A stretch of DNA of 64,000 nucleotides, from the NCBI GenBank assembly GCA_945888435.1, contig CAMCZW010000008.1, positions 2,235 to 66,234 of the forward strand, read 5' to 3'. The DNA is from a bacterium UBP8_UBA817. GTDB lineage: Bacteria > Margulisbacteria > Marinamargulisbacteria > SXXA01 > SICP01. Position 1 is the first letter of the stretch. Every line of letters starts with the position of its first letter. Shown piece after piece: positions 1 to 40,172 of the stretch. Made by a program: the position numbers and the translations under genes. The notes beneath the pieces are model-generated. The model ran no database searches, was not told the origin of the DNA, and was given only the letters and a program-made list of their open reading frames with translations.

Positions 1-185
1 GGGGGTGGTGGATCGCTTACGCTTTATCTCTTAACGCGAATCCCGATAGGCGAAATGATTAAGAGCTAAATGAAATCTAGGAGAGGATGGCCGAAGCCAA
101 TACGATTGAAGACAGATTAGAACCTATTTTCGCCAAAAACGAAGGCTGGTGGGGGGGTCTTCTTCCTGGATTTATGTTCGGCTTG

Positions 186-3100
186 TTAAACCTCGCCACC
201 CACACCCTTAAACTTCTCAACGAAAGTGGCAATTCTTTGGAAAACACTTTGTTTTTTGCTTAAGTATTGCGGATTAAGCGGGCTTATTTTGGGAAGGATT
301 GCATTTAGCTCTGTGCCATTTTCACTGGCATATTCACGTTTTAATGATGCAGTTATATAACGCTTAGCGGCTTCTGTATTCAGATTTTCAGCACTAATTA
401 ATTCTTCTGCTTCACGTTGTTGTTCAGCTTGAGCAAAGGTAAAGAAAGCATCAATAATGCTGGCTTTGTCGAGAATGTTATCCAAGTTGGTTTGGTTAAT
501 AAAATCAACCAGCAAACTCTCTTTGGCGCGGTTGCCAAGGCTGGCACGAATCACCCGGCGTACATCTTCAACCAGTACTGATTTATCTTTAACCTTTTTA
601 TTGTTTTCAAAAATCAGTTCGAGAATGTAGTCCAGGTTGATCTCTTGTGACTTCAGCAAATCTACCTCAAAGACCACGTCATCCCAATCGATGGCGGATT
701 TTTCTTTTTCAGTGGCAGATTTTTCCCGACGCAGCCAATCGCGAATATCGTTGTAGGTTGAACGGTAGTCCTGAATCTGCCGCTCGGGGGGCATGGCGAT
801 CGCTTGCAGTGTGGCCAAGTCATCATCGTTTAAATAATGCTGCGCCTTAAATGCCTCAACCGCCTGCGGGTCGCTCATATCAACGCTTTGCAAGGCTTTC
901 AGGCTGGCGAATTCATCGTAGTTTTGCAGCACGTTCTCAACGCGCAAATATTCGCCGAACAGTTTCGCGAAGGCCTTTTTGTCCGATTCTTTTTCAATGG
1001 CAGAGGGATCAGGAAAGCGCTGCTCCAGCTCCCTCACAACCTCAACAAAGCCACGCCGTGCCTCACCGGTAAGCAAATCGGTAAAGCCTTCCATGTATTC
1101 CTTGTAGCTTTTTTCCAGCACCACGTTTTTGGTGTTCGTATCGCCAAACAGGGTAATGGCATCAATTGTGGCCTGCTCCAAATCGCGAAAGGTGACGATA
1201 TTGCCAAAGGTTTTGGTGGCATCGTAAATACGGTTGGTACGCGAATAGGCCTGCATCAAACCGTGATAGCGCAGGTTTTTATCCACAAACAAGGTGTTCA
1301 GCGTAGGCGCATCAAAGCCGGTCAGAAACATACCCACTACAATCAGCAAGTCGATTTCCTTGGCTTTTACTTGTTTAGCCAGATCGCGGTAATAGTTTTG
1401 AAAACCATTGCTATCCACACTGAAGTTGGTTTTAAACATCGCGTTATAGTCGGCGATGGCCGCGCTTAAAAACTCTTTGGCGCTGGTGTTCATGGCTGAG
1501 ACATCAAAGCTTTCATCCAGAATATCGCCAACGGCATCTTGTTCTTCATTGGCAGCAAATGAGAAGATGGTGGCCACTTTCAGTGGCTTGCCGCTGCCTT
1601 CTTGTAATTTTTTCAAAGACTCGTAATACAGCTTGGCGGCATCCACACTGCTCACGGCAAACATGGCATTAAAGCCTTTTGCACCAGCCTGCAGGCGATG
1701 GGTTTTTTGCCGGAAGTTATTCAAGATGTACTGCGAAATCTCCCGAATACGGTCTGGGTGAAGCAAAGCTTGTTTGTTTTCCGCCGCGTTGAGTTTTGTC
1801 TCATCCAACTCGGTTTCAAGCGCTTTGAACTGCGGGCGCACATCGTTGTAATCGACCTTGAACTTCAACACCTTTTCGTCACGGATAGCATCGGTGATGA
1901 CATACGAATGCAACTCGCGGCCAAACACGCTGGCAGTGGTTTCTGCACCGAGGGCGTTTTGCGGGAAGATAGGTGTGCCGGTAAAGCCAAACTGATAAAA
2001 CTTTTTAAACTTCTTCTTCAGGGTCTTCTGTGCCTCACCAAACTGGCTGCGGTGACACTCATCAAAAATAAACACCACTTGCTTGTTGTAGATGGGCAGG
2101 TCACATTCACCTTTCATCAGGTTGTTGAGCTTCTGGATGGTGGTGACGATGATTTTGTTGTCGTCCTTATCCAGATTGCGCTTAAGCCCGGCGGTGCTGT
2201 CAGAGCCATTCACACTATCGGGTGAAAAGCGCTGGTATTCCTTCATGGTTTGGTAATCCAGATCCTTACGATCCACCACGAAGAACACCTTGTCGATAAA
2301 ATCCAGCTCAGTCGCCAAACGTGCCGCTTTAAAACTGGTCAGGGTCTTGCCAGAACCTGTGGTGTGCCAGATAAAGCCACCGCCCTCAAGAGCGCTCCAG
2401 CTTTTGGCTTGATAGGCACTTTTGATCTTCCACAAAATGCGCTCGGTGGCGGCAATCTGGTAAGGTCGCATCACCAGCAGCGTGTCGCTCACATCAAACA
2501 CCGAATAATGCAGTAGCACATTGAGCAAGGTGTTTTTCTGGAAAAACGTGGCGGTAAAGTCCTTCAGGTCTTTGATCAGGCCGTTATCAGCCTTCGCCCA
2601 GTTCATGGTGAAGTCGAAGCTGTTTTTGTTGCGCGCCGTGGTGTTGGCAAAATAACGGCTATCGGTGCCATTGGTGATCACAAACAGCTGTAAATACCTG
2701 AATAAAGAATGCTCGCTATTAAAGCTCTCTTTGCTGTAGCGGTGCACCTGATTAAAAGCTTCGCGAATCGCCACACCGCGTTTCTTCAGCTCAACCTGCA
2801 CCAAGGGCAGGCCATTGACCAAAATCGTCACGTCGTAGCGATTGGCGTGGCTGCCGGTTTGCTCAAACTGCTTGATCACTTGCACCTTGTTGCGGGCAAT
2901 GTTCTTTTTGTCCAATAGGTAAATATTCTTAATGCGGCCATCGTCAAACACAAAATCGTAAATATAGTCATCATGGATTTTGCGGGTTTTATCGACGATG
3001 CTATCGCTGGGTTTATCCAGATAGGTTTCTACAAAACGCAGCCACTCGCCGTCAGCAAATTGCATATTGTTCAGGGCTTGCAGCTGCTCGCGCACATTGG

Positions 3101-3341
3101 CGATCAGTTTGTCGGGCGTGTTTAAATCGGGGACATAGCCATAGCCCTGATTCTGTAAATCCTGAATAAATTCCCGCTCCAAGTCATATTCGCTTTGGTA
3201 GCTTTCTCTAACCTTCCATTCCTTGGTGTATTTATCCAGCACGATGAAGCTATTTGATTCGGCGATGGGCGTGGTGTAGTTAATCATTCTTTTTGCCTTT
3301 TTTTGATAACTGCAATTGCCTGGCGTTTTGCGCGCTGACAA
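186..3341 (-). CDS. hsdR: Type I restriction enzyme R subunit (HsdR), SF2 helicase/endonuclease
   Basis: 1051-aa ORF with Walker A (GSGKTLT) and DEAH-like (FDECHRS) helicase motifs, length and architecture typical of HsdR. It is the last gene of the hsdM..hsdS..hsdR operon. The true start may be the internal Met at 3287 (MINYTT, preceded by AAGG), giving an 8-nt overlap with the upstream gene. Confidence 0.93.
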
Positions 3342-4134
3342 CCTGTTTACCCGTTTCTGCTTCTAATTTCAGCTTGGCTTCTTTCGCAACACCGCCCCCA
3401 CGCTTTGCGACATCCTCGTGTTCCGCAAACGACTGCGGGTTCACGACTTCTGAAATCTCTTTGGTGGACAACTCTGCCAGCATATTCATGATCAATTCTT
3501 TATTGGTCATGTTGTCACGCAGGTTTTCTTTTTTAAGCCCTTTATATTGCTTGTATTCCTTAGCGGTTTTCCCTGCCCATGTTTTGTAAATCACATCAGT
3601 CAAAAAGGCGAATTCACCACCTTCTTGCAAGCCGTGTTTTTTCCATTCATCGGTTAATTCTTTGCGGATCTCTATGCTTTTTAGCCGTTGGTTAATCCAG
3701 TTATCCGAATAACCCAGCCGCTTATAATCCAGCATGGCTTGTTCGATGGATAACTCAGGGTCTTGCAGCTGATTCAGTCGTTGATTTGCCACCTCAGCCA
3801 GCCACAGCTTGAAGGGTTCGGCTTTTTTAGATGGAATGGATTGGATGATTCTGAAAACCTGCTGGGTATCCAACACATCGGTGAGGCGTTGCTTTCCGTC
3901 AGGGGCTTCGAGCTTCAACTGGTTAGTGACACTAACCACTTCACTACCTTCTTGTTTAAGCTTGTTTTTTAGCCATTTCCAGTAGTTTCTGGCCTTGGCA
4001 TATTCCGTCTGGTCGGTGAGTGCCGCCACCACGTCCAAGGCAGAAAACCACCATTTTTCCTCAGCCTCATCCCAAGCTGTCCGAACATGGATGGATTCAA
4101 ACAGCTGTAGTTTGACTTTATGATCATTTTGCAT
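3280..4134 (-). CDS. Bro-N domain / DNA-damage-inducible protein D (DinD)-like protein
   Basis: 284-aa ORF between hsdS and hsdR. The mid-region ...[30 protein letters not shown]... resembles the E. coli DinD segment ...RKGLKKNQKILDHMGSTELAANLF..., recalled from memory. It overlaps hsdS by 11 nt and hsdR. Confidence 0.5.
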
Positions 4135-5380
4135 CGGCAGCCCCCTTGAAACTCAGCAGCAAATCGCGGTAATACTCGTATTGCTTTTGCCGCAAGGCAA
4201 TTTCACGAGGCAAGCCTTCGGTGATGGAGTTGGTGAGGGCATCGAATTTATCGAGAACTGACGCGATACGCTCCTGTTCAGAAAGATCAGGAATAGGTAT
4301 TGGCAAAGTCTTAATAATATCTGCATTCAAATTGCTAACCGAACCACTGTTAATTTTCCCTGCCCAGTAGTTCTGCACATTATTCGACGAAAGATAGTGA
4401 TAGAGGTAGTCTGAATTTAGCTTTTTCCGGTAGCCACTGATCGAGGCCCATCCGTCATGAATAGCTCCACTTATACCAAGGATGTAGGGTCGCCCAAAAC
4501 TCATTGAGTTGGACAAAATAAAATCACCTGCATTCAAAATACGTGACTTTCTTGAGCCTTCTAATGTGACCTTTTGAGCTGTGCTATTTACATATTTTGA
4601 GCCTGGCGAAGTATCACCAATTTTAATCCAAGGCACGCCATCCTCATCATCAGTTATGTATTTTGCGATTGGTCTAGGCGATGCTCCGCGTTGCACGTTA
4701 GCAACCTCCCCCAGCGTCTTCCACTCCACTTCCCCTTCTTCAAAACTCAACAACTGATCGCGATAGTAGTTGTATTGTTTTTTGCGGGCGGTCAGCTCGG
4801 CGGTCAGCTCGGCGGTCAGCTCGGCGGTCAGCTCGGTGAAGGCGTCCAGAATGCGGACGATTTCGGCTTGGATTTCAAGCGATTTTTTGGGGTTTTCTGG
4901 GCAGGGGATGGGGATTTGGAGTTTTTTCACAACCCCTGCATTTATATTTGTCTGAGAGCCAGCCCCGAGTGATTTGATATGTTCATATTGGCTAGACAAG
5001 AAATGGAACACATAACGGTAGTTTGCAACATTCTCATTAAGTTGAATATTTGCACACGCCTGATTTGTAGTCATTGGAATTTTGTTAATCCCAATTTTTC
5101 CAACAGTCGCCCCATACATCGCAACAATCACACAGTTTTCAGGTATCCAATTTGCGCTGGAATTTTTCAAGCCAGCTTCTGTGATTTTTACGCCTGTATC
5201 CCAAATTTCTCCAAAATCAACTTCTTGAGTCCGTAACCAAGGAATGTCGCCACCATAATATTCAGGCACACCAGTTCTCGGAGTGCCGCCAGACGAAATT
5301 TTTTTAGCAACCTCTCCCAACGCCTTCCACTCCACCTCAGCGCCATCCAGCAGCTTGTCCATAAAGTTCACGCTGCTCAT
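4124..5380 (-). CDS. hsdS: Type I restriction-modification specificity subunit (HsdS), two target-recognition domains
   Basis: 418 aa. It has a central conserved spacer with (LTAE)x4 and a C-terminal conserved ...ALRQKQYEYYRDLLLSF, both typical HsdS conserved repeats. It sits between hsdM and hsdR. Confidence 0.9.
   Translation of the reverse strand: MSSVNFMDKLLDGAEVEWKALGEVAKKISSGGTPRTGVPEYYGGDIPWLRTQEVDFGEIWDTGVKITEAGLKNSSANWIPENCVIVAMYGATVGKIGINKIPMTTNQACANIQLNENVANYRYVFHFLSSQYEHIKSLGAGSQTNINAGVVKKLQIPIPCPENPKKSLEIQAEIVRILDAFTELTAELTAELTAELTARKKQYNYYRDQLLSFEEGEVEWKTLGEVANVQRGASPRPIAKYITDDEDGVPWIKIGDTSPGSKYVNSTAQKVTLEGSRKSRILNAGDFILSNSMSFGRPYILGISGAIHDGWASISGYRKKLNSDYLYHYLSSNNVQNYWAGKINSGSVSNLNADIIKTLPIPIPDLSEQERIASVLDKFDALTNSITEGLPREIALRQKQYEYYRDLLLSFKGAADAK
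4778..4826 (-). repeat. 12-bp tandem repeat (gcggtcagctcg) x4 inside hsdS, encoding (LTAE)4 in the central conserved region
   Basis: Four perfect direct 12-bp copies are seen directly in the sequence. They are in-frame and lie in the TRD1-TRD2 spacer. Plus-strand GGQL-repeat ORFs are shadows of this repeat. Confidence 0.9.
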
Positions 5381-6417
5381 GCCTCATCCCCTTCCAGCTC
5401 ACGCTCAATCTGCTCAATGCTGGGCAGGTTAGTCTGCAGCGGCTCGGGTAAGGATTCCAGCAGTTTGTATTCGGCAATGCCCATGGGTTGGGTTTTATCG
5501 CCCAAGGCGTATTCCGCCACCACTTTGTTTTTACTCTTGCACAAGAGCAGGCCGATTGTGGGGTTGTCGTCCTCGTTCTTCACTTGCCGGTCTACGGCGG
5601 TGAGGTAAAAGCCCAGTTGCCCCAAATGCTCAGGCTTGAACTTGCCGCCCTTGAGTTCAATCACCACATAGCAGCGCAATTTCAGGTGATAAAACAGCAG
5701 ATCGATAAAAAACTCATCGCCCCCGACTTCTAGCAGCACCTGCCGCCCGACGAATGCAAAGCCCGCTCCCAACTCCAGCAGGAATTCAGTGACATGTTTG
5801 ACCAGTGCATGTTCAACCTCGAGCTCCTGCGCTTCGTCGGTTAAGCCAAGAAAGTCGAAACGGTAAGGGTCTTTTAGTGATTCACGCGCCAGATCGGACT
5901 GGGGTTTAGGCAAGCTGATATCAAAGTTGGTGACGGCTGAGCCGCTGCGCTCCAGTAAGCGGGTTTCGATTTGCATAACCAGCACATTACGCGACCAGTT
6001 GTGCTCAATGGCCTTTGCAGCGTACCAGCGGCGCGCTTCAGGGCTGGATAACTTGTCCAGTAGTGCTAATTGGTGATACCACGGCAATTGTGCAAGCACC
6101 GCTTGCACAAATTCGGCATCGGGCCAAGCCCCCGCAAAAGCGCGCATGTACTTGAGGTTGCGCGGCGAAAATCCTTTCATGTCGGGGAATGTGGTGCGTA
6201 GATCGTGCGCCAAGCGTTCAATGACTTTGGCGCCCCAGCCTTGGTCTGCTTGGCGAGCCAAAATGGCATGGCCAATTTGCCAGTAAAGCGCAATGAGTTC
6301 ATGGTTTACCGCCAGTGTTGCCCGTTGCTGGGCATGGTGAACTTTTATCTTCAACTCGACTAACCAATCGGTATAGCCTTCTGGCGCTTGTATCAGTGAA
6401 ATGGGCTTATCGCTCAC
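5377..6417 (-). CDS. DUF1016 (YhcG-like) PD-(D/E)xK nuclease-family protein
   Basis: 346 aa. C-terminal ...FFIDLLFYHLKLRCYVVIELK... fits a D..(D/E)xK nuclease core. This family commonly sits in Type I RM loci. It overlaps hsdS by 4 nt. Confidence 0.6.
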   Translation of the reverse strand: MSDKPISLIQAPEGYTDWLVELKIKVHHAQQRATLAVNHELIALYWQIGHAILARQADQGWGAKVIERLAHDLRTTFPDMKGFSPRNLKYMRAFAGAWPDAEFVQAVLAQLPWYHQLALLDKLSSPEARRWYAAKAIEHNWSRNVLVMQIETRLLERSGSAVTNFDISLPKPQSDLARESLKDPYRFDFLGLTDEAQELEVEHALVKHVTEFLLELGAGFAFVGRQVLLEVGGDEFFIDLLFYHLKLRCYVVIELKGGKFKPEHLGQLGFYLTAVDRQVKNEDDNPTIGLLLCKSKNKVVAEYALGDKTQPMGIAEYKLLESLPEPLQTNLPSIEQIERELEGDEA

Positions 6418-7023
6418 CTACAGCTCCTCAGTCTTAAATTCGCTATAACCTTCGTAGTAATAGCTCACATCAATCCCCTTCATAAACAGCGCGCGGTCAT
6501 CAATCTGGTCGGTGAGGGCTTGTTTGATCAGGGCGTTTATTTCTAGGTCTTTGACCACGCTGCGTTGCATGGCGGAGAGGTAGTCGTCTTTATCCACGGC
6601 ATTCCAGTCGACTACCTGCTGGATTTCTTTTTTAAGCATCAGATCGAGCCAAATCCGTGTGGCGCGGCCATTGCCTTCGCGGAAGGGGTGGGCGATATTC
6701 ATCTCGACATATTTTTCGATGATTTGGTCAACATTGCTTTGCGGCATGGCGTCTATATGTTTTATCGAGGCTTCAAGGTACATGACCCGCGCAAAAGCGA
6801 TTGTGCCTTTGGCGATATTCACGTCGCGGATTTTTCCCGCAAAGGCGTAAATTTCTTCAAACAAATAGGCGTGGATAAAGACAAGTCCGGCAAATTTACC
6901 CACCTCAGCCTTGTTAATATTGCCAGAATCAAAAAGTTGTTTGGCTTTTTGTTTGCTGATTTTTTCTTCGGCGCGGGCCAGTTCGATTTGATCGGTGATG
7001 TTGAGCTTGTTTGCCAGAATCAT
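6418..7023 (-). CDS. fic: Fic/Doc family protein (AMPylation-type toxin/effector fold)
   Basis: Canonical Fic motif HPFREGNGRATR is present, in a 201-aa protein. Confidence 0.85.
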   Translation of the reverse strand: MILANKLNITDQIELARAEEKISKQKAKQLFDSGNINKAEVGKFAGLVFIHAYLFEEIYAFAGKIRDVNIAKGTIAFARVMYLEASIKHIDAMPQSNVDQIIEKYVEMNIAHPFREGNGRATRIWLDLMLKKEIQQVVDWNAVDKDDYLSAMQRSVVKDLEINALIKQALTDQIDDRALFMKGIDVSYYYEGYSEFKTEEL

Positions 7024-8057
7024 GCTAATTCTCTTTTTTTATCAAGTGTTTTTATCGCTTTATCAAAATCAGATTCATAAAGCCTATCCTGCACAATGCG
7101 GTATTTTTCAAACTCACTTTCGGCATGGGCTTTGGCGATTTCAGCACTCACTTTACCTGCGTCTTGCAAAACCTCCCGATCCGTTGCCGCTATAAAACGA
7201 TTTAAACGATCCTCCCAGTCGGCCATGGTCATGGGTATCTTTCTTAACGCCATGTCTTCTGCCAAATCGAGATAAGCACTCACTAGTCTTTGCAGTTGGG
7301 CAAGCTCAGGGTCGGTTAGGTAATTTTTCGCAATACTGACGTCAAATTTTTGAATCTTACCCTGGGGTGCATCTTTCCATGAGGTTAAGCCCATATTGGT
7401 TTTTTCGGCATCGCAGCGGTTGTGAACCACTTCGGCGGCGGTTTGTCCGTGAATCGCCCAGTGCAATTTATTTTGTACGATCGCAAAGAATCTTTTGGTT
7501 GCAGTGGCTGTTACATCATAGTCAATCGCAGTGGCATAGATGTCGGTAATCTTTTGATAAAACTTACGCTCGCTGAGCCGAATTTCGCGAATACGCGTAA
7601 GTTGTTCTTCAAAATATTTTTTGCCGAGGATACTGCCATCATTTTTAATGCGCTCATCGTCCATAACATAGGCTTTGATGGTGAATTCTTTAATGACGAT
7701 GGTTGCCCATTTACGAAACTGTACTGCACGCTCAGAGTTGACTTTGTAGCCAATTGCGATGATGGCCGAGAGGCTATAGTGCTGGGTGTTATAGTTTTTG
7801 CCGTCTTGGGCAGTTATTCGAAAATTTCGAATAACTGATTCTTTTTCCAGTTCACTATCTGAGAATATTTTTTTTAAATGGTAGTTAACGGTGTGGGTTT
7901 CGACATCGTACAAAACGCCCATCATTTTTTGGCTAAGCCATACATCTTCATCCGCATAGACAGCTTCGACACCGCTCTCGCCGCTGGCTGCGATAAAAGT
8001 TAAATACTCTGCTGCGGACGAGCGAATAGTGGGTACTGTTAGCTTCTTTTTGCTCAT
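7020..8057 (-). CDS. rhuM: RhuM family virulence/defence-island protein
   Basis: 345-aa protein with an N-terminal region typical of RhuM (..[14 protein letters not shown].. ..FRKWATIV..). It overlaps fic and hsdM by 4 nt each. Confidence 0.7.
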
Positions 8058-9604
8058 GATGTGCCCCCTTCAATTTGAGCCACGATGGCGTCGATATCTT
8101 TACGAAGCTGGTCGATCTTAGCAACGGTGGTTTTCAGCGCGGCATTGAGCTGGGTAATAGCCACCACCTCGCGATTGTCCTTGGCTTCGACGTAGCTGCT
8201 GACCGATAGGTTGTAATCGTTAGCAGCGATGGCTTCAAGGCTGACCGATTTGGCAAAGTGCTCAACATCCGCTTTGCTATCGAAGGCCTGCATGATCTGC
8301 TCGATGTGCGTATCGGTAAGCGTGTTGTTATTGGTTTCTTTTTTAAACAGACCACTGGCATCAATAAACTGGGTTTTAGTATCTGTTTTGTGTTTGGATA
8401 GCACGAGAATCGTGACGGCAATGGTGGTGCCAAAAAATAGGTTTGGAGCGAGCGCAATCACGGTTTCGATATAGTCGTTATCAATTAAATACTGGCGTAT
8501 TTTTTGTTCGGCTCCGCCACGGTAAAAAATACCGGGGAAGCAAACAATGGCGGCGCGGCCTTTGCTGGAAAGGTAACTGAGCGCATGCAGCACAAAGGCA
8601 AAGTCAGCTTTGGATTTTGGTGCTAATACACCCGCAGGGGCAAAGCGGTCATCGTTAATCAGGGTGGGGTCGTCTGCGCCTATCCATTTTACCGAGTAAG
8701 GCGGGTTGGAGACGATGGCATCAAAGGGCTTGTCATCACCAAAATGCGGATGTCGCAGCGTATCACCCAGCTGGATATTGAACTTGTCGTAGTTGATGTT
8801 GTGCAAGAACATGTTCATCCGCGCCAGGTTGTAGGTGGTGTGGTTGAGCTCCTGACCAAAAAAACCGTCTTCAATAATGTGGGCGTCAAAGTGTTTTTTG
8901 GCTTGCAGCAGCAGGGAGCCGGAGCCGCAGGCAGGGTCATAAATCTTGTTGACGCTGGTTTGCTTGTGCATGGCGAGCTGCGCAATTAGCTTGGACACGT
9001 GTTGCGGGGTGAAAAACTCGCCACCGGATTTACCGGCATTGGCGGCGTAGTTGGAGATGAGGAACTCATAGGCATCGCCAAACAGGTCGATGTGGCTGCC
9101 CTCAAAGTCACCAAAATCCAGCCCGGCCACGCCTTTGAGCACGGCGGCCAAGCGGGTGTTTTTGTCGCCAACGGTATTGCCGAGCCGATTGCTGGTGGTA
9201 TCAAAATCGGCAAACAGGCCTTTAATGTCACCTTCTGATGGGTAGCCGTTGGCTGAGCTTTCGATGGCCGCAAAGATGGCGGCGAGGTCGGTACTCAAGC
9301 TTTGGTTGGTGTTGGCGCCTGCGGCAATGTTGGCAAATAACTGGCTCGGGTAGATGAAATAGCCCTTGGTTTTAATGGCATCGTCTTTGATTTCCGGGGT
9401 GATGACCTTATCGCCGAGTTGCGCATAGTTGATGCTGTCATCACCGCCTTCAATATAGCTGGCAAAGTTTTCGCTGATAAAGCGATAGAACAAGGTGCTG
9501 AGTACGTATTGCTTGAAATCCCAGCCATCCACTGAACCGCGGACGTCGTTGGCGATTCGCCAGATTGCAGCGTGAAGTGCTGATCGTTCTTGTTCTTTAT
9601 TCAT
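8054..9604 (-). CDS. hsdM: Type I restriction-modification N6-adenine DNA methyltransferase (HsdM)
   Basis: 516 aa. It has the NPPYS catalytic motif (..[11 protein letters not shown]..), a SAM-binding region (DPACGSGS) and an HsdM N-terminal domain. Confidence 0.95.
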
Positions 9605-9605
9605 A

Positions 9606-11876
9606 TCAGCCTAACGGGATTCGCGTTCTTACAAAATTAAGCGCCGATCCCGCCTTAAACCAGTCAATCTGAATATCGTTATAAGTATGCAAAATAGGGA
9701 TCATATCCAAAGTTCCATCCGCATGTCGTGCAATCACTCTCAACTGAGAGGCTGGAGAAAATGTTTCTAATCCTTCAATATCCAAAAGATCATCTTCCCT
9801 AATTTTGTCGTAATCCGTCGGATCCGCAAAAGTCAGGGCCAATAATCCTTGTTTTTTCAAATTGGATTCATGAATTCGCGCAAAAGATTTCACAAGCACC
9901 ACTCTCACCCACAGGTAACGGGGCTCCATAGCCGCATGCTCACGAGAAGACCCCTCTCCATAGTTCTCATCACCAACAACCACAGATCCGCGTCCTTTCG
10001 ACTTATAAAGCCGTGCCGTATCAGGTACCGGTCCGTAAGTCCCTGTCACCTGATTTTTAACCGAATTCGCTTGGCCATTAAATGCATTCATCGCACCAAT
10101 AAACATATTGTTAGAAATATTATCCAAGTGTCCGCGATAGGCCAGCCAAGGCCCTGCCATCGAAATATGGTCAGTCGTGCACTTTCCTTTCGCCTTAAGT
10201 AACAACGGCAATCCACGATAATGGGCAGACTCATACGCATCAAACGCATCAAGTAATTGCAAGCGATCCGATGTCGGACTCACCACAACCTGGATATGTC
10301 CACCGTTCGCAGCTGGTGCAACAAACCCCGCATCCTCAACATCAAAACCCCGTGTCGGAAGCTCATCCCCAGAAGGCGGCGCAAGCTTAACCTGTTGCCC
10401 AGATTCCGTCGTAATCGTGTCTGTCATTGGATTAAATAAAAGTGACCCTGCAAGCGCAAACGCAGTTACAATTTCTGGAGAAGCCACAAACGCACATGTA
10501 TTCGGGTTACCATCATTACGTTTCGCAAAGTTACGATTAAATGAAGTCATAATGGAGTTTTTACGATTAGGATCCGTCGTATGACGTGCCCACTGACCGA
10601 TACAAGGTCCACACGCATTCGCCAACACAACACCGCCAATCTGCTCAAATACACCGAGTATGCCATCGCGCTCTGTTGTAAATCTCACCATTTCTGATCC
10701 TGGAGTAATCGTAAATTCACTTTTGGCTTTAACGCCTTTATCCAAAGCTTGCTGTGCAACAGATGCCGCTCTCGCCATATCTTCATACGACGAATTGGTA
10801 CAAGATCCGATCAATCCAACTTCTAGTTTTTCAGGCCATCCATTTTGGTGCACCGCGTCTTTAAACTGAGATAATGGAGTCGCTAAATCGGGTGTAAAGG
10901 GTCCATTGATATACGGTTCAAGAGTCGATAAATCAATTTCAATCACTTGATCATAGTAGTCATCAGGAGTCGCAACGACTTCGGGATCCGGGCGTAAATG
11001 TTCTCTGATTCCATTGGCCAATGCCGCCACTTCCGCACGTCCGGTGGCGCTTAAGTAGTCCGCCATTCGATCATCAAATCCAAATACAGAAGTTGTGGCC
11101 CCAATCTCCGCACCCATATTACAAATGGTCCCTTTACCCGTACATGACAAGGCATCTGCACCGTCGCCAATATATTCAACAATCGCGCCAGTACCGCCTT
11201 TCACAGTCAAAATACCCGCGACTTTCAAAATAACGTCTTTAGGAGATGCCCAACCAGACAACTTCCCAGTCAATTTAACACCAATAAGTTTAGGAAATTT
11301 AAGCTCCCAAGGAAGTCCGGCCATCACATCCATCGCGTCCGCACCGCCAACCCCAATCGCAAGCATTCCAAGCCCACCCGCATTCGGAGTATGAGAGTCC
11401 GTACCAATCATTAATCCACCCGGAAACGCATAATTCTCAAGAACAACTTGGTGGATAATCCCCGCACCTGGCTTCCAAAATCCGATGCCATATTTATTAG
11501 AAACAGAGGCTAAAAAATTATAAACTTCTTTGTTATCTTTATTCGCAGTTTCCAAATCGGCTTTTGCCCCAACTTTCGCTTGGATTAAGTGATCACAATG
11601 CACAGTCGATGGGACCGACACTTTATCTTTACCGGCTTGCATAAACTGAAGCAACGCCATCTGAGCAGTCGCATCCTGCATGGCCACACGGTCAGGAGAA
11701 AAATTAACATAGTCTTTACCTCGGCCAAATGGACGAAATGGAAATACTTCCTGCAAATGGCTATATAAAACTTTCTCCGACAACGTCAAAGGACGACCCA
11801 ATAATTCGCGAGCCGCAGCCACCTTTTTAGGTAACTCCTGATACACTTTTTTAATCATATCCAAATCAAATACCAT
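9606..11876 (-). CDS. acn: Aconitate hydratase, mitochondrial-type (~750 aa)
   Basis: The ORF extends to 11954, but the Met at 11876 is preceded by AAGGAG. Aconitase family motifs are present (..[12 protein letters not shown].., ..[10 protein letters not shown].., C-terminal swivel domain). Its stop lies 1 nt from the hsdM start codon. Confidence 0.9.
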
Positions 11877-11965: not shown

Positions 11966-12253
11966 GTGAAATATTTACTTGACAACTTGATAAGAAAAGA
12001 AAATAATAAATATATGGATAAAACAGAATTAAGTGTCGGCGAATTAAAAGCTCATTTTTCAGAAGTCCTAGAAAAAGTACAACAAGGACACCAGATTACG
12101 ATTCTATTTGGAAAGCAAAAAACACCCGTCGCAGAAATCATTCCCTTAACACAAAAAAAATCTCCAATAAGATTAGGGTCCTTATCAAAAAAAGCATCTT
12201 TCAAAATAAATCCAGGATTCAAAATGACCGAAGACGAATTTCTAAATTCATGA
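11966..12253 (+). CDS. Type II antitoxin (Phd/YefM-like), partner of the downstream PIN toxin
   Basis: A small ORF sits immediately upstream of the PIN-domain gene and overlaps it by 4 nt (ATGA). The real start may be the internal Met at 12014. Confidence 0.55.
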   Translation: MKYLLDNLIRKENNKYMDKTELSVGELKAHFSEVLEKVQQGHQITILFGKQKTPVAEIIPLTQKKSPIRLGSLSKKASFKINPGFKMTEDEFLNS

Positions 12254-12648
12254 AAATCCTAATTGATACCCACATATTATTATGGGCAATTTTTGACCCA
12301 TCCAAGCTCTCTAAAAAAGAAAGTGCTATTATAAAAAATCCAGAAAATATCATTCTGGTAAGCGCAGCTTCATTATGGGAAATCAGCCTCAAATATTCAA
12401 AAGGTCAGCTCAACTTAGTCAGGTGTATTCCCACTGCACTACCTTCGATTCTTGTTGAAGACGGTTTTGAGCTAATTGATCTAACCCCTCAAGAAACAGC
12501 CGGAAGTTTTATTCTCCCAAAAACCACACATTCGGACCCATTCGATCGCATGATCATTTGGCAGGCAATATTTCGGCAAATACCCCTACTAACCAGAGAT
12601 GAAAAATTAAAAGAATATACAAACTATGGGCTTCAGCTCGCCTTCTAA
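12250..12648 (+). CDS. vapC: PIN-domain ribonuclease toxin (VapC-like)
   Basis: 132 aa with an N-terminal MKILIDTHILLW.. PIN signature and acidic residues. It is paired with the upstream antitoxin. Confidence 0.8.
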   Translation: MKILIDTHILLWAIFDPSKLSKKESAIIKNPENIILVSAASLWEISLKYSKGQLNLVRCIPTALPSILVEDGFELIDLTPQETAGSFILPKTTHSDPFDRMIIWQAIFRQIPLLTRDEKLKEYTNYGLQLAF

Positions 12649-28832: not shown

Positions 28833-31800
28833 ATGAAAATAAAATCAATCATTTGGAGTTGTTTTTTAATCTGTTTCCTTTGCAGTCCGATTACTGCAAG
28901 TGTAGAGCTCCAAGTGTCTGGAAGCCTTCCGCCTATTAACGGAACCTTTATTTCAGGTAGTCATGCCGCAACAATTGGGATTTATAAAGGCACTACAGGC
29001 ACCCCCGTATGGTCAGAGCCAATTGCCAGCGTAACATTCAGAAACGGAATGTTTACAACCATTATCGGAAAAGTCACGCCCCTTGAAGCAAGCTATTTAT
29101 ACGTCACAAATCCACATATTGGCATCACTCTCACAGACACCCCTCATACAATTCAATTTGTTAAACTCACCGCATCACCATACGCATTCAAAGCCGCGGT
29201 AGCAGAGCGCGCCCGTAAAGTCTCAGCCAATGTCATCACCGGAACAATGGTTTCAACAGCAAACTTATCAAAAGGGCTATATGTTAAAGCAAGTAGCCAA
29301 AATTACTCCCTATTCGTCAATGCAAATAGCGTAGGGATTGGGAAATCAAATCCAACCACCAAGCTCGATATAAACGGAATCATCAATGCCGACGGATTTA
29401 GAATTAGAGGAGAAGATATCGCAGGAGCTCTCTCCTGGAAACCTAACACCGTCATCACCCAAAATATTTACTTTAATACAGGCCGGGTAGGAATCGGAAC
29501 CTCCATCCCCCGCTACACATTAGAAGTTGCAGGCACCATTAATGCCTCTGAATTATTTACCAAATCTAGAAAAATCTCATCCACATTAGATTGGCAACGA
29601 TCTCCAGTCGCATCAGAAAATTTGTATTTTATTAACCTGGATAAAAAGGTCGGTATTGGAGTAGAAAATCCAAGATCAAAACTTCATGTATTAAACGAGA
29701 TTAGAGTATCCACCAACGTCTATCCTGCGGCGGTTGGTATGATTAGAAGATCCTCTGCAAATAATGAGATTGAAGGTTATACCACCAGGGGCTGGTTACC
29801 CCTCACCGGCGTACGAGGCGGCGGCCAAAAAGATCGTCTAACTTTTTTTACAACTCCTAAAAATATTAGCTCTAGCCCATTATTTCTTCAAAATCATACT
29901 AATTCTTTTGTAGGAGTTGGAGTCTCCGCCCCCAACTCAACACTTCAGATCAAAGAAACCAATTCTAATAAAAAATTATTTCAAGTAACTTCAACACAAA
30001 ATAAAACATTGCTAATGGTTGGCTCTACAGGCAACGTTGGGATCGGAACCCCTACTCCAAACCAAAAGCTAAAAGTAATTGGCAGCCTCGCTGCTGACGA
30101 TATCACACTAAACGGCCTATCTATCCTTCTCGCAGTATCAAAAGACTCTGTATGGCTATTAAACGCAAGTCATAATGTCTACTATATGTTAGGGAATGTC
30201 GGGATTGGCCAAAACAGACCTGAAAGCCTTTTAGAAATTGCCCAAAGAACCAACTCAAATGATGACCCCGCCATTACATTAACCAACGGTAGAAATGTCA
30301 GCTATACCATGGGAGTCGATAACGATAAGCCAGATACATTTAGAGTAGAGTTTGGAACCACGCTTGGATCAACATCTCCATTATTTGTCGCAAAAAATAA
30401 CTTTTTAGGTATTGGCTTAGAAACCCCCTTAGCGCCCCTTCATATCAACGGAAAAATAGGAACTGTTTTTAGCGGGACATTTTACGGAGTCCCAGAAGAA
30501 ACTGCACAAGAACTCGATCCGTTAACCGGTGATGAGCTTATCCCGACTCTTCCAAAAGAAGGTCCTGGGACTCGATTTTTATGGCAACCTCAAAGGGCAA
30601 TATTCAGAGCTGGCCAAGTGGAATCAACATCCCCTTACCTAAGAGGAGAAAATTGGGATAATGAAAACTCAGGCAAATTTTCAAACGCATTTGGACTAAA
30701 TAGTATCGGTAGCGGTAATTACACCACCGTCGCCGGTGGAAAAAATAATATCGGCAGTGGCGCCTATTCGACCGTAGCTGGTGGAGAAAATAACATTTCA
30801 GAAGGAGACTTTTCACTTGCTGTCGGTAAAAATGCGACCGCACTTCACGAAGGATCTTTTATTTTTCTCGACTCATCAGCAGCCCCAACATCAACTATTA
30901 AACACAGTCAATTTTTAGTATTCGCGTCACGAGGTATGGGGATTGGAACAACCCTAACCACGGTAGACGGCATCAGATCAGGCTTAACTATTAAACGAGA
31001 TAAAAGTAGTGGGAACATTCTAAGATTTATCGGTTACCCCACAGAAAATACAGGAACCGCCCTATCATCATCTGGAAATATGATTATCGGATCACTCACT
31101 CCGGGAAACGCCAAATTATCCATAATGGGGGCAATGAACATCGGCGGAACACCAAGAACCCCCTCAGGCAATATTATTACGGCCAATATTAAGCTCAGCG
31201 TCAACCGTGACACCCCCGGTCTTTACAATACCTTCATAAAATCGATTGAAGCCATCACAACACCTGGCATGGCCATTTTAAGTGGCCCAGGGCACATCGG
31301 CATGGCCATTATTCCAAATATGTTTACAGCAGCAGACCTATTAACCGGACTTCAAGTAGGAAGCGGAAGTGTATTAGCTAGTGAGTACATTCAACCCGAC
31401 GGAACCCGCCTTGGAAAAGAAGCCGTCATTGTGTGGTTAGAAAATTCAGACGGAGATGTTTACTTCGTCTCTGGAAACACAGGAATTGGGATGGCATCAC
31501 CAAATAGTATGTTGGAACTATCTAATATCGGGAATACATTGTTTGCAAACCCACAAAATCCGGCAATTAGCTTCACCTCCTCACCCATTAGCTACAGTAT
31601 AGGGGTCAAAAGATCCGGAAACTCAGCACTCCGTATCATTAACGGCATCAATCTAACGACAGACACACCAGCATTTGCAATCCATGATAATAAAATCGGG
31701 ATTAAAACAGATACCCCGCTCGCCATGCTCCATGTCAACGGAAACGCAATTTTTAGAAGTGGCCTTGCTGTTGGAACCACCAATCAACAAGCCAATCAAT

Positions 31801-34800
31801 TGACTGTCCCTAGCGTTATGACCCGAGGCCTTAATATCAGAGGCGACGTCGTCACCTCTAGCGGAGACAAATGGAGCATAACTGGCAATACAGTCTACAA
31901 ATCATTACTTGATCCAGTAGGGATTGGAACAAGCACTCCAAGAACTGACCTTGAAGTCATTGGAATAGTCTCTGCAAACAGTTTTGTAGTTAAAAACCAA
32001 TTCGATGTTTTAGGGAATACCAAAGTCAATCGAATTGATTTCAATCTCGACGAATCTGAATTTAGATTTGAAGTACAAAATGAAAAACTATTTTTGGATG
32101 ATGTTCCTCTATCCGATATTTTATCGAGAGGGTTACCATCCGATACCAGCATTGGCCCGATCGTCATTTGGGTAGTAGATCCAACTCGAGATACTGATCA
32201 AATATTAAGCGAAACCGACATGATCTGGTATTCAGAAACCCCAAGAAGAATTGGCACTTTAGTCTCATCTCATAACATCAATATCGGAAATACCATAAAA
32301 GACTCAAGCACCTCCTTCGAAAAAACAATCCAAGTTAAAGTAGGCACCCAAAGCATACTTGATGGCCTCAGTTTACAGGGCAATATCACTCACGACGGAA
32401 CTCTCTCTCATTCTAAAAATTTCACGCTTAGATCAAGCAGATTAGTAATTGATGAAAGATGGTCAACACCGAGCACGACCAATGTTCAATATGCAAATCA
32501 TATATTTGATATCTACGGAAAATCCGTCAAATTAAAAAATTCCAACGATGGCGCAGGTACCACTAGCATGATTAACCAAGCACCCGCCACGGGAGTTCGA
32601 GTCAACGTCAGCGATGTAAAACCTCAAACCAGCGCAGAAAAAGTATATTCAGCGATCTTTATGGGGGATGTCGGGATTAAAAAATTCCCAGCTGCAATCA
32701 CTGGTGAATATATATTAGACGTTAAAGGGATCGTTTCTGCAAATCGATTTATCATTTCAAAACGACTCAGAATCACTACCATCAATGCCAACAACATTCT
32801 ATTTATTAATGAAGCAACCAATGCAATTGGAATTGGGACATCAACCCCAACCACAACACTAGAAGTAAAAAATGAAATTAAAACAACACATCTTAGAGCA
32901 AGAAGCCTAGATACCAACAAATTAGTAGTCCAAACAAAAAGCTTATATGTCGATAATCAAAAAGTCGGTATGGGCACAATTACACCTGAAAGTTTACTCC
33001 ACATCAGTAAAACACTCACAAGAACACCCACTACTGAATATATTAACTTTTTAATCACAACCAACATCCAAACTACCCAAAAAAATAATAAAGGACTAGA
33101 AATCGTCTTAGCTACTAGCGCCAACTCCACATTTGGGACACTCACAACACCAAAAACGGTTAAAGGTATGGACATCACAATGGCCAATTTTAATAGTCAT
33201 GACAGTGGTCAAGTCATTGGGATTAGCGCCGAAACCAAAAGACAAAACAATGCCTACTCTGCAATTTTCAAAGGGGGTAACGTTGGTATCGGAGTTCCAA
33301 ATCCGGTTTACCCTCTCCAAGTATCAGGGACGATTCGAGCCGACAATGTCCTTCAAATCAACCTCTTAACCCGACAAGAAGCTGCGTCATTTAATTATCT
33401 AAATGTCCTTTCACCAACTGATAATACAATGATTTCAGGGACAGCAATTGCTCGAAATATGGTTGTTCGGAAAATGAAACAAAGCAGCCGTTCTTTTATA
33501 GTGAATAATCAAATTAATCTACCGACTATCACACTTCAGGTCACCGCGAATGGATTTCTTGAAGCCATCAATTTAATTGCAAGCGAAAGCATAAAAACAA
33601 AAGACATGACATCAAGCAGACTACTATCGGGTAAAGATGCTGAGTTTCAAGGCCTTACCATCGGGATTGCCGAAGAAACCTTAGACACAGTGAGAGTTCA
33701 GACAAGCGCAAATGCCACGCAAATAATCGCAGATAAAAGCATTCTCGCAGGCGCTGCAAAAATCAACTCAACTACGCTCAGTGTTCTTCCATATGGATTT
33801 GTCGGAATCAATGAAGCGACACCGAGAGCCATCCTAGACGTCAAACTCACTAACGACACGTTCGTTACACTTCATAACAATAGCAATACCGAAAATACCA
33901 GCGTCGGGATTATCTTCACCCCAGCATCCGCAACCAATATTCGAAATATTGGTTCAGGGATTGTTGCTATCAAGACAACCGCAGATATATCCGCTTCAGA
34001 ATTAGCGTTCATGACAAATCCAGTAAGTAACACACCTCAAGAGAGAATGAGGATGTTTAACGAGGGCGGTATCCGAATCGGAGCCCCGACGGTCTCTGAA
34101 ATAGCCCCTAAAAAGAGTCATCTGCTCGTTAAAGGCACCGCCTTAGTTTCAGGGATAAGTACGGTAAATCTATACGTAAACACAGAAACCATTCGAAACA
34201 ACGGTAATATTCGAATTGCAAACTCAATCAAAATTTTTGACCAAGATTTTATCGTCTCAAGAAATTTAATGACCAATACGGTTCAGCTTCAAGAATTATC
34301 AAGTCATCCCGTCACAAGCAATCAAAAATCAATTTTATACGCCTTCAATAATGGTAGCGCAGCCGGGATTTACTATGGAACCATATTAGAAGACGGAGTA
34401 TTCGCAACAGGAAATATGGAAGATACCTTTACCGGAACAAGAAAAGTAATCCCTGCATTTAATAGTAGCCACAGCATCGTCGATACCAATGTCATGCACT
34501 GGACTACAAGCAATATCAACTCGGTCGGTATTGGAAAATTAACCGTCGGATCTCATATCACATCAAACGTAGTGGGATCAGAAGCATCTCAGTTACATGT
34601 AGCAGGTGTCACCAACTCAGTATTAGCCGATAAAACCCTTAAAAAATTGCAATTAGAATTTAAAGACAGAAACACAGCAGGCTTCAGAACATTCCAAGGC
34701 TATAAATTAACCTCCACATTCGCCACATCAAAGTTAGCCGAAAATGAACAAATGATTGGATTAGACGTCAATCTCACTACACTTGCAAGTGAAAGTAGAC

Positions 34801-37800
34801 GGTTTGGCAACGGCACTATCCTAAGAGGTACAAAATACGCAGCTCTATTCCGAGGTGCTCCAGTAGGAATTGGGAATGCCACACCAAGCAGCCAGCTTCA
34901 TGTAGTAGAAACAACATCAATCAACGCCTTTATCGTAGATGGCCATCAAGCCGGAGTAACGACCAATGCACTCACATTAAAATCAAATGGATACCTTGGA
35001 TTTGGAACCAATGCCCCGGAAGCAAAAGTGAGCATAAAAACACCAGCAACAGATACCACATTTAAAATACAAGGGGTAACAGAAAATATACTGATGCTCA
35101 TCACTAACGGCGGTAAAATCGGAATTAATCAATCTAACCCAACCTATAATCTAGATATTTTGGGGACACTAAAAGCAAAGAAAGCAACCTCAAATATACT
35201 ACTTGGAAAAACAATGAATATTAGAAATCAAGCCCTCGTAGTAGATCAAAACGGCTACGTAGGGATTAATAATTCATCTCCCGCCGCACAATTAGACCTG
35301 ATCAAAACATTCACTACATCTGATAGTAATGCTCTATATAATCTTCAAAAAATAAACTTAACCACATCAGGTGCCATAAGCAAAGGCATCACCGGCGTCG
35401 AGTACAAAATCGCAGTAAACACCAATACTATCGTAGGAATTCCGGCCCAAAGTAAAACAGTCACAGGAGCAAAATTTAACCTCTCTAACCTTGCTGCACA
35501 GTCCATCTCAGCAAAAATCATTGGTCTCCAAGTGCTAGTCACCAGAAATACCAGCCCTGTCGCAATCTTCAATGGAGGAAAAGTAGGAATTGGGGTTACA
35601 GAGCCTACTTATATGCTTCATGTTAATGGCGGCATAAAAGCACGGCATGTCACCCTAAATTCAAGCAGCAGAACACAAGCAACTGCAATCACAACCAACA
35701 CACTGAGTGCAATTAATGCAGGCCTCGGTAATATGACTATTAATAATAATAAACATATCATTATTCGGGGGACACTCCAGGCCGCAAACTTTATCAAAGA
35801 ATTTCCCTTTTTAAATCGAGCCCCAACTGCAAACCCTGTATTTTTACTTGCACAGGTTGTCACTGCAAACCGACTTCGAATCGGAACAAGTAGTATTTCA
35901 ACAACCACCCCAGTCATCATTCAAGGAACTTCCATATTTACGGGCGGAAGCTTAGTGATTAAGGACACTCCAGGAATCCTACAAAATCCATCTGCAAATC
36001 TACACATCTATGGCAACAGCGAGACGAGCCAGAAAGTGGCATTATTGGTTCTTAAAAATAACATTCCTATTCTAAGAGTCGATAAAGTCGGAAATGTGGG
36101 CTCATTTGCTGCCACTCCAGGTGGAAACGTTAACCCAACAGCCAATTTATACCTACAAAGTGATTTTGGAAGAGTAGTCAGCATCGAAGATCCCGTATCA
36201 AAAGTATTTATCGTCAGTCAAAACACATTAGTTACACTCGGAAATCAACGAATAGGACCAATGAGTGTTCTCTCCATCAAACAAAAAACAGCAGATACAC
36301 CAATCCTAAGAGTAGAAAGTGCACAAGTCCCCTACACAATGTTCATTCCAGCATCCCAATTAATAGGGCTAGGAACATCCCTGCCTCTAGCAGCGCTTCA
36401 TGTATCAGGATCCATGATCATCGATAAAGTTGGAACGCCAAAACTCGTTCAAATCAGCCCCACTGGAAGTATTGGCTTAGGAACTCCGGCAACACGTTTC
36501 ACTCTAAGTACATTAGAAAATATGCAACTCTCAAGCAGCAATATGTCTGGAGGAAGTGTCCCAACTGAAATCTCAACATTTACCGGAAATGGAACCCTAA
36601 TGAGAATTGGAACACGCCATCTCTTTTTTGGATTACAACCACATCCAACATTGGTCAACACTTACGACACTCATATTCAAGCATCTTCAGCAAGTGATAG
36701 CCAATATATTTTCAGAAATGGAGATACTGAAATCATGCGTTTAGTCGATACAAAATTAGGAGTTGGAACTTCTCGCCCTTCCGCTAATATTCATGTCGTC
36801 GGAGCATCTGGATCGCTGACTCCATTGTTTAATGTCAGCAGAGGTACCTCCAAAAACATTTTATTTATCAATGCCACCGGAGAAATTGTCATTAATGGGA
36901 CAAGGGCATCAGCAGACATCGATGTAAACGGAAATGTAAGCAGTTTAGGATTCCAAAATCATCCAGATGGAACTGAGTTCACAGCCCCCACCCTCAACGT
37001 AACGAATGCTAAATTTGCAGCAAGAAGTATATTCGATATCATCAAAACAACGAGCGCCAATAAAACTCATAAACTTGAAACGATTCGAATCAATTTAGAG
37101 AGAGACCATTCAAAAGCACTCACTGCATTTGATTTTGGGATTACAGGTGGATCTACATTCCGCAACATCGGAACTAACGCAAATGCTTATGGTCTCCGCA
37201 TCGATGTCAACGGAATCAAATTACCAGATCCAACATTCCAAAATCAAACAGCCTTCAAATATGCAGCGATCTTTAGAGGTGGAAACGTTGGGATTGGAAC
37301 ACTCACCCCAGACGAAGCCACCCTCAACGTAGTAATTACAACAACCAATGGCACAGTACTTCAGTCTGGAATCGTAGTTTCAATGAGAACTACCCCCAAT
37401 ATCATACCAGGAGGGATAGCTGATAGAGGAAGTCAACTTCAATTCGTCATTAACCCATCCTATAACATTCCACTCACTCAACGATTCGCAGTGCCTACAG
37501 ACAGTTTTAAAAGTATTGTCTACACATTAGGACAAGGCCAATTCTACCTTGGAGGATCCACATTTTATGCAACCACCGCAATCTCAAATCAGGTCATGAA
37601 ATCACTTAAAGACAACGGAGTCTTAACCTCCGATGGACGAGTCGACGGAGTGATTACATCATATGCAAACCTTCTCACTCAGCTTAGGAATAAATATTTA
37701 AGTGGATTTGTGCAAGATTACATTACAACCAGTGACGTTGCGAAAGTATTAACTCCGTTTATCATCGAAAACTCATTCACACTTAAAACAAAAAATCTGG

Positions 37801-39211: not shown

Positions 39212-40147
39212 ATGATCAAATCTGCAATAAGTGGGTTTTTTAATTACCTCCAATATGAGAAAAAACTCTCAAAAAATTCGCTTGCCGCGTATCAAGTAGA
39301 TTTAGAGCAATTTACAATATATTGTCCAGAAGCAATTTCATCTTCCGTAGATTGTGAAAAATATATCTCGTATATTCAAAATCAAGTCTACAAACCAGCC
39401 ACGCTCAAAAGAAAAGCTTCCTCCATACAACAGTTTTTAGACTACCTCTATCATGATTCTTGGATCACTTCCAAAATTGAACTTCCAATAACCACACCAA
39501 AAATTCCAAAGACACTTCCAAAAGTAATGACCAAAGTCCAAATCGATTCCATTATTTCAGGCCTATTAAAAGTAAGTAAAACCCCATTGAGGGACCAGAT
39601 CGTCATCAACTTACTCTACAAATGTGGCCTCAGAGTTGATGAATGCGTTCATATCACGATAGAAAATATTAATCGCAATCTCACCATCAAAGTAATTGGA
39701 AAACGATCTAAAGAACGGATTATTCCAATCAGCAAAGAAACACTTAAACTTATTAAAAGTTATATCAAAAAAGAACGTACCTCACTTGAGAAATCGCCGT
39801 CTCCGTACTTGATTTTAAACCGGAGAGGCACGAACTTAACCAGGCAAGGGATTACCTTCATAATCAACAAAAATACTTTGGGGCCACTCACAACCCCTCA
39901 TATATTCAGACATAGTTTTGCCACTCATCTTTTAGAACGGGATGCGTCAATCCGAGAAGTACAAGAACTATTAGGTCACAGCTCCATAATTACCACACAA
40001 AAATACACACAGGTATCCACTAAAAAAAGAAGAAGTATCTATGATATCGCACATCCAAGAAGTCGCCATGCAAGAAAATTATTAGATTCAACGATGATAT
40101 GTTTAATGGAAGAACAAAGGAAAAATAAGGTACAATATGGCAAATAG
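39212..40147 (+). CDS. Tyrosine site-specific recombinase, XerD/XerC-like
   Basis: 311 aa with an N-terminal SAM-like core-binding domain (..[15 protein letters not shown]..). Catalytic-domain residues R (GLRVDE), H-x-x-R ([12 protein letters not shown]) and Y (..[15 protein letters not shown]) are present. It starts 2 nt after the stop of giant gene 1 and overlaps giant gene 2. Confidence 0.85.
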
Positions 40148-40172
40148 ATTTCCCACCATTAATTGGAGTCCC

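Follow-up and report, generated by a model that had tools for sequence, protein, structure and literature searches.

A 12-nt repeat in the hsdS gene of an uncultured Margulisbacteria lineage: a probable gap-length module of Type IC restriction specificity

The hsdS gene of the uncultured bacterium UBP8_UBA817, which encodes the specificity subunit of a Type I restriction-modification system, contains a perfect 12-nucleotide (nt) tandem repeat. Does the number of units vary in nature, and what would such a change do to the enzyme? We addressed this question in a 64,000-nt stretch of contig CAMCZW010000008.1 (the window), which carries the gene on its minus strand. A sequence-only reading of this DNA had proposed that slipped-strand mispairing alters the copy number, and that a phase-variable regulon is controlled through the resulting re-tuning of the methylome. 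Our analysis suggests, with a probability of about 0.8, that the tract serves a Type IC specificity subunit as its gap-length module, in which an in-frame change of unit number would alter the gap of the DNA target and so diversify restriction specificity. The locus is a further case of this known module, which is polymorphic in nature.

The repeat tract and its copy number

Tandem Repeats Finder identified the hsdS tract as by far the strongest repeat of the window (period 12, 4.2 copies, 100% matches, score 100; Table 1); the runner-up in the 64 kb scored only 54. The tract is perfectly periodic over 50 nt. Its lag-12 identity run measures 38 nt, compared to a mean of 7.8 and a maximum of 13 in 200 shuffles of the sequence. 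Allowing up to one mismatch, the unit occurs only at these four sites in the 64 kb, against a chance expectation of 0.11. It is read in frame as GAG CTG ACC GCC four times, encoding amino acids (aa) 183-198 of HsdS. The perfect fourfold repeat described in the sequence-only reading is therefore real, and its placement between the two target-recognition domains is borne out by its position in the two-domain gene. The coordinates given there, 4778-4826, lie about 10 nt too far to the left, since the plus strand reads gcggtcagctcg four times at 4788-4835. The repeat peptide is not the (LTAE)4 given there: the peptide across the tract is F-T-(ELTA)4-R, which contains three complete TAEL/LTAE units and partial ones.

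The exact 418-aa HsdS was absent from the protein cluster table, and further copies of the locus were found by look-ups of the flanking genes and of the hsdS position. The resulting copy numbers are those of consensus contigs from short-read metagenome assemblies; the contig of the window is also included in the NCBI metagenome-assembled genomes (MAGs) GCA_947445385.1 and GCA_947493445.1. A complete hsdS with four units was present on three contigs, namely L001 (GROS21-1, SAMEA9561196), L007 (ERZ27280278) and one more, and a complete hsdS with three units on two, L004 (GROS21-1, SAMEA9560364) and L006 (ERZ27280265). Each of the two contig series, ERZ272802xx and GROS21-1, thus contains both states. 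L007 is 100% identical to the window across 10,134 nt. L006 aligns to it over 10,146 nt with 0 mismatches and a single 12-nt gap, and its HsdS is that of the window minus one ELTA. The two alleles are therefore alike except for the number of 12-nt units, as expected of a gap-length switch. Other contigs of the population diverge from the window by 0.01-0.3%, for example with 46 single-nucleotide polymorphisms (SNPs) in 17.2 kb, 18 in 18.5 kb or 6 in 2.75 kb. Because L006 lacks any SNP in 10 kb against this background, it belongs to the same clone-level lineage as the window, with the repeat as its sole difference. In L004, the first target-recognition domain of HsdS has two further changes, Y121F and E133D (window positions 4982 and 5019), and the 3-copy state is thus found on two hsdS haplotypes. 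Copy number had been predicted to vary, and indeed it is not invariant: 3- and 4-copy alleles occur on identical or near-identical backgrounds.

The names of these contigs (k141_) suggest a final k-mer of 141 that exceeds the 50-nt tract, so that collapse of the repeat is unlikely. Four Logan contigs (k=31; L002, L008, L009 and L011) break within the tract, L002 exactly 30 nt into it, where a break would be expected. We considered these breaks as evidence of heterogeneity and rejected them, since a perfect periodic tract of at least 42 nt cycles in a k=31 graph regardless of the population. The 2.4-kb contig L011 (ERZ18672290) also has a 2-nt deletion at window positions 4618-4619, within the second target-recognition domain, which splits hsdS into two open reading frames (ORFs). 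This deletion could be an assembly error or, by analogy with the homodimeric, palindrome-recognising HsdS of EcoR124I(delta50), EcoDXXI and NgoAV, a natural truncation.

Complete genomes of E. coli served as a benchmark. Over 3.2 kb, a single 12-nt unit is all that distinguishes the Type IC alleles of the plasmids pAPHA_2019 and pECAZ161_3 (records L048/L049; NZ_CP051610.1 and NZ_CP019009.1), which have two versus three TAEL and the linkers TALTAELTAELNM and TALTAELTAELTAELNM. An allele-specific 561-nt query produced 323 full-length matches in complete E. coli genomes. About 147 of the 323 were at least 99% identical, and the others listed (about 175) showed 97.7-97.9% identity with a span 12 nt longer, so that the two groups represent the two forms of the allele. 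The module is polymorphic in nature, with no obvious hypermutability.

The central conserved region of HsdS, with the peptide ...ILDAF-TELTAELTAELTAELTA-RKKQYNYYRDQLLSF, resembles the distal one, where the linker DALTNSITEGLPREIAL is followed by RQKQY. In both 17-aa linkers, Leu or Ile occupies positions 3, 7, 11 and 15. Since four DNA units give a central linker as long as the distal one, the two antiparallel helices are of equal length, and the distal linker resembles a degenerate version of four repeat units. In the solved chain of EcoR124 (F-TALTAELTAELNM-RKKQ), the linker measures 13 aa and contains TAEL twice; HMMER places a 4-aa gap opposite F-TELTAELTAELTAELTA-RKKQ of the window. Judged from this alignment, the window allele has the length of EcoR124II and EcoDXXI ("three TAEL", 17 aa) and does not lie one step further, and the 3-copy variant (13 aa) corresponds to the EcoR124I state. 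The count of 4.2 DNA copies arises because the flanking residues (TEL..., ...TA) come from the same unit. Setting four units here against two or three in EcoR124, as the sequence-only reading did, is therefore not a like-for-like comparison. Gain or loss of one 4-aa unit may shift the helix packing by one rung without destroying it, because both helices carry a hydrophobic stripe of period 4. The equal length of the distal linker may also be the reason that linkers in nature do not grow beyond 17 aa.

In the 120 best HsdS homologues, the central linkers are quantised at 5, 9, 13 and 17 aa, with 13 aa as the most frequent length. All homologues with both target-recognition domains 76-83% identical (P0001, P0002, P0004 from E. 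coli, P0009) have a 13-aa linker. A 30-nt anchor comprising the ILDAFT end and one unit matched 19 loci exactly. These come from unrelated taxa, including Nitrosomonas, Hydrogenophaga, Marinagarivorans, an Anaerolineae MAG and a Desulfuromonadaceae MAG, and contain the identical unit in 1, 2, 3 or 4 perfect copies, none higher. A synthetic six-unit query returned linkers of 17 aa or less, except for one 21-aa fragment, from a list that is rich in short fragments and not exhaustive. The window allele is thus as long as such linkers usually become, and this maximum equals the partner helix in length. In L015, a Marinagarivorans MAG, the central region is identical to the window at 95/95 nt. More generally, the central-region DNA of L014-L032 is conserved to the nucleotide across distant taxa and the flanking target-recognition domains are unrelated, which would fit a role of the conserved regions as recombination handles for domain shuffling.

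Mechanism and alternative explanations

How would a change in unit number act on the enzyme? In EcoR124I/II, an extra TAEL parts the domains by approximately one base-pair step and converts GAAN6RTCG to GAAN7RTCG, a change ascribed to crossing-over between misaligned 12-bp repeats (PMC3874165). That the repeat of the present HsdS likewise sets the non-specific gap had already been suggested from the sequence; it is supported by the N6 versus N7 gaps of EcoR124I and EcoR124II and by the alignment to 7bst_A. Accordingly, each 12-nt unit would add four residues, or about one turn, to the central helix, which would pair antiparallel with the distal helix and thereby space the two target-recognition domains. 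As there are no sequence differences among the four units, one could now and then be gained or lost, always in frame, through slippage during replication or unequal exchange between sister strands. Loss of one of the four units would shorten the linker from 17 to 13 aa, the EcoR124I state. The enzyme would remain active, the non-specific gap of its bipartite target would change by 1 bp, and both the methylation pattern and the range of restricted DNA would be redrawn. By the same analogy, the window allele and the L004/L006 allele should share their half-sites and differ in the gap, that of the window allele being longer by 1 bp. Restriction alleviation is independent of ClpXP in Type IC enzymes (PMC3874165), so that a cell could survive a change of specificity. 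A shufflon-type mechanism was considered and rejected: within 1-12.5 kb we found no extra hsdS cassettes, inverted repeats or nearby recombinase, and the rest of the window lacks further copies of the unit.

Several points weigh against this interpretation. The 3-copy alleles come from only two short-read metagenome assemblies. States 3 and 4 are the sole ones seen here and could represent two long-lived sublineages instead of ongoing switching. The E. coli Type IC alleles P0087, P0058 and P0092 each correspond to a single protein sequence on 21-91 contigs, which suggests that the repeat module can stay stable for long periods. Furthermore, slippage is much less favoured by four copies of a 12-nt unit than by the long tracts of 1-5-nt units in classical contingency loci, and the 1-bp change of the gap is taken from analogy.

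Alternatively, the tract could be a static coiled-coil feature and the difference between three and four copies either an assembly artefact or an old polymorphism of two stable sublineages. The tract is indeed difficult for short-read assemblers, as the interrupted Logan contigs illustrate, just two states were seen, and some E. coli alleles are unchanged across many contigs. But the complete alleles stem from k141_ assemblies, whose inferred k-mer is longer than the tract, and both states recur in two independent contig series. Moreover, the two linked amino-acid changes of L004 indicate a real haplotype, the absence of SNPs from 10.1 kb of L006 against a background of 0.01-0.3% points to a recent event rather than an old split, and finished E. 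coli plasmids likewise differ by one unit. We therefore give a static feature only a slim chance. Copy number might also have been altered by homologous recombination or gene conversion with incoming foreign Type IC hsdS DNA and not within the gene itself. Points in favour of such exchange are a central region that is near-identical across phyla (L015 and the exact anchor in 19 loci) and hsdM and hsdR genes 79-87% identical to proteobacterial loci. The change in L006 is not accompanied by flanking substitutions, though, and the 64-kb window contains neither a second hsdS copy nor an inverted repeat. A converted patch limited to the perfect repeat would be indistinguishable from slippage, which is the simpler explanation, and we consider an origin from foreign DNA highly improbable.

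The sequence-only reading went further and saw a high-frequency, reversible slipped-strand contingency locus, whose re-tuning of the methylome drives a phase-variable regulon (phasevarion). Copy number does differ on an identical background, the four units are codon-identical, suggesting ongoing turnover, and TAEL-adjacent length variation was raised as a possible specificity switch in the survey by Atack et al. (PMC7383803). On the other hand, every length change is in frame, hence there is no ON/OFF switch. The tract, with a 12-nt unit in 4.2 copies over 50 nt, is short and its unit long, and it does not have the many copies of a 1-5-nt unit, or anything comparable, that characterise hypermutable simple sequences. 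The operon is full of phage-defence-candidate genes and looks horizontally acquired, which points to defence. One study reports non-variable Type I methylation without regulatory effect in E. coli (PMC8287963). Finally, the host is an uncultured environmental bacterium, unlike the host-adapted pathogens with documented phasevarions. A phasevarion is unlikely on these grounds, and the slipped-strand, high-frequency and regulon parts of the proposal are its less likely ones; the variation in copy number was predicted correctly.

For the gap-length module, the most likely benefit would be a population whose restriction specificity is diversified against phage and mobile DNA. We regard such a role in restriction specificity and phage defence as more likely than epigenetic regulation, because the embedded genes of the operon match defence candidates in PADLOC, its composition is distinct, and its hsdM and hsdR genes are close to those of Proteobacteria. 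A bolder version, which we put forward only tentatively, is a four-state "rheostat": one unit conserved across phyla would set linkers of 5, 9, 13 or 17 aa, capped by the partner helix, and the top two states would interconvert often enough to recur in independent sample series of this uncultured freshwater-type bacterium. If true, this would be evidence from the natural habitat that a wild population of a non-pathogen switches its Type I specificity.

Mechanism, structural basis and natural polymorphism of such modules have already been described, and the locus does not open a new question here. It offers a clean natural case, beyond Neisseria and the plasmids of enterobacteria, of a mechanism known from textbooks: one helical turn would retune the target, and environmental populations of one near-clonal lineage contain both states. 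Should the gaps of the sites methylated by the two alleles differ by 1 bp, the population would consist of two mutually restricting, differently methylated subpopulations. Such a split would bear on phage-host dynamics and on gene flow within the species, and methylation motifs derived from metagenome bins may then be mixtures.

The hsd operon and its neighbourhood

The hsdS gene is part of a seven-gene operon on the minus strand, in the order hsdM, RhuM-family gene, Fic, YhcG/DUF1016 nuclease, hsdS, Bro-N and hsdR, in which most neighbours overlap by a few bases (Table 1). The order hsdM-hsdS-hsdR is kept, but three additional genes separate hsdM from hsdS and one separates hsdS from hsdR. 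The longest ORF of hsdR extends to 3341, and its start codon was checked. The Pfam domains of HsdR (EcoR124_C, T1R_D3-like, SWI2_SNF2 and HSDR_N) all score above their cut-offs. HsdS aligns with the EcoR124 HsdS chain 7bst_A at the N-terminus and in the central and C-terminal conserved regions. Based on the EcoR124_C domain of HsdR and this alignment, the system appears to belong to Type IC, the EcoR124 family. We found the features of this type, that is, an EcoR124-type HsdR, a two-domain HsdS, a 4-aa TAEL-type repeat derived from a 12-nt DNA repeat, and the gene order; originally, Type IC was defined by subunit complementation or antibody cross-reaction with EcoR124 (PMC3874165).

Table 1. 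Coordinates of the hsd genes and of the repeat-associated segments of hsdS in the window
Feature	Position	Strand	Evidence and remarks
Perfect period-12 tract	4787..4836	-	Four in-frame units GAGCTGACCGCC (ELTA) at 4787-4834, plus 2 extra periodic bases
Central conserved region (helix D1/CR1), aa 167-213	4742..4882	-	SLEIQAEIVRILDAF-TELTAELTAELTAELTA-RKKQYNYYRDQLLSF, linker 17 aa
Distal conserved region (helix D2/CR2), aa 366-411	4148..4285	-	...VLDKF-DALTNSITEGLPREIAL-RQKQYEYYRDLLLSF, linker 17 aa
hsdS, Type I specificity subunit, 418 aa, two target-recognition domains	4124..5380	-	Pfam Methylase_S, 2 stretches, E 5.7e-46; 7bst_A E 7.7e-70
hsdM, N6-adenine methyltransferase subunit, 516 aa	8054..9604	-	Pfam N6_Mtase 3.9e-121, HsdM_N
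RhuM-family gene, 4-nt overlap with the end of hsdM	7020..8057	-	Pfam Virulence_RhuM 1.4e-106; PADLOC PDC-S05
Fic/DOC-family gene	6418..7023	-	Pfam Fic 3.5e-12; PADLOC PDC-S04 2.5e-100
YhcG/DUF1016 PD-(D/E)XK nuclease gene, immediately upstream of hsdS, 4-nt overlap	5377..6417	-	Pfam YhcG_C 1.8e-63, DUF1016_N; PADLOC PDC-S02 5.4e-167
Bro-N-domain gene between hsdS and hsdR	3280..4134	-	Pfam Bro-N 1.2e-10; PADLOC PDC-S13 6e-122
hsdR, Type IC restriction subunit, 1033 aa from ATG at 3287	186..3287	-	Pfam HSDR_N, SWI2_SNF2, T1R_D3-like, EcoR124_C 2.2e-72; gene calls on related contigs

Each of the four embedded genes has a match among the phage-defence-candidate families of PADLOC (PDC-S13, S02, S04 and S05). 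Subsets of them (Bro-N, YhcG, Fic, RhuM) recur in other Type IC loci, namely L022, L026, L028 and L031. The operon region (window 1-10000) has a GC content of 0.47-0.49, a GC skew of about 0 and a negative AT skew, compared to a GC content of 0.40-0.45, a GC skew of -0.1 to -0.3 and a positive AT skew in the remainder (10000-64000). At the DNA level, hsdM and hsdR are 79-87% identical to loci of unrelated Proteobacteria. The hsd operon is probably a horizontally acquired island, which adjoins an aconitase gene. On contig L044 (SAMEA9560434), which corresponds to window positions 6272-7679, the RhuM and Fic genes are only 92.7% identical with indels and the adjacent YhcG gene is 99.6% identical; the population may thus include a variant in which recombination has made the embedded genes a mosaic.

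Beside the hsd island, between the aconitase gene and ksgA, a small ORF and a PIN-domain gene (about 11966-12640) likely form a toxin-antitoxin pair; the called length of the small ORF differs between contigs (79 versus 88 aa; L001/L033 gene calls). Further along the window, the region 27865-49814 (plus strand) contains two giant ORFs separated by a tyrosine recombinase gene (39212-40147; Phage_integrase 7e-37). The first ORF (28833-39209, 3458 aa) has no Pfam match, and the second (40137-49814, 3225 aa) shows only a sub-threshold bactofilin-like stretch. An Rfam search detected no RNA genes in the window. For its IlvD, the best named relatives show 77-79% identity and are divided between Margulisbacteria MAGs and Methylococcaceae.

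Comparison with known systems

The closest parallel is the EcoR124I/EcoR124II pair of plasmid R124. It belongs to the same family and has a 12-nt/4-aa unit in the TAEL register at the same site of the central helix, and as in the locus described here its two states lie on an identical background one unit apart, with linkers of 13 and 17 aa. The DNA units differ (GAGCTGACCGCC here, CTTACCGCTGAG in EcoR124), as do the target-recognition domains. In our locus, 16/17 linker residues form a perfect repeat (flanks TEL...TA) with 4.2 copies in 50 nt, compared to 2-3 copies in EcoR124. Moreover, the present locus is chromosomal, belongs to an uncultured bacterium and contains four extra embedded genes. 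With three TAEL repeats, EcoDXXI and EcoprrI correspond to the 17-aa linker of our locus, and a review regards this number as the apparent optimum (PMC3874165). EcoprrI also harbours a foreign gene, prrC, in its operon, and the Bro-N gene occupies the prrC position in our locus. The embedded genes here encode RhuM, Fic, YhcG and Bro-N proteins and not an anticodon nuclease as in EcoprrI.

The E. coli IncF-type plasmid allele of pAPHA_2019 and pECAZ161_3 shows the same single-unit difference, with both states common in complete genomes. In contrast to our locus, it is plasmid-borne, occurs in a cultured and heavily sampled species, and has another unit sequence and other target-recognition domains. 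The Type IC system NgoAV of Neisseria gonorrhoeae also varies naturally between strains, with 0-3 LEAT repeats in the center of HsdS. One versus two LEAT repeats are accompanied by the PacBio motifs GACN6TGC and GACN7TGC, respectively (PMC6789123). NgoAV differs in that it comes from a host-adapted pathogen and has a poly-G tract, which truncates HsdS and changes its specificity, whereas the present gene has no homopolymer switch.

Simple-sequence repeat phasevarions (Type III mod genes, or Type I hsdS/hsdM with 1-5-nt tracts) share with our locus a tandem repeat within a restriction-modification gene whose length alters methylation. They are distinguished by long tracts of short units, frame-shifting ON/OFF states, high switching rates and demonstrated regulons. 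In hsdS of this bacterium, by analogy with its Type IC relatives, the in-frame change would alter specificity alone, and its rate is probably much lower.

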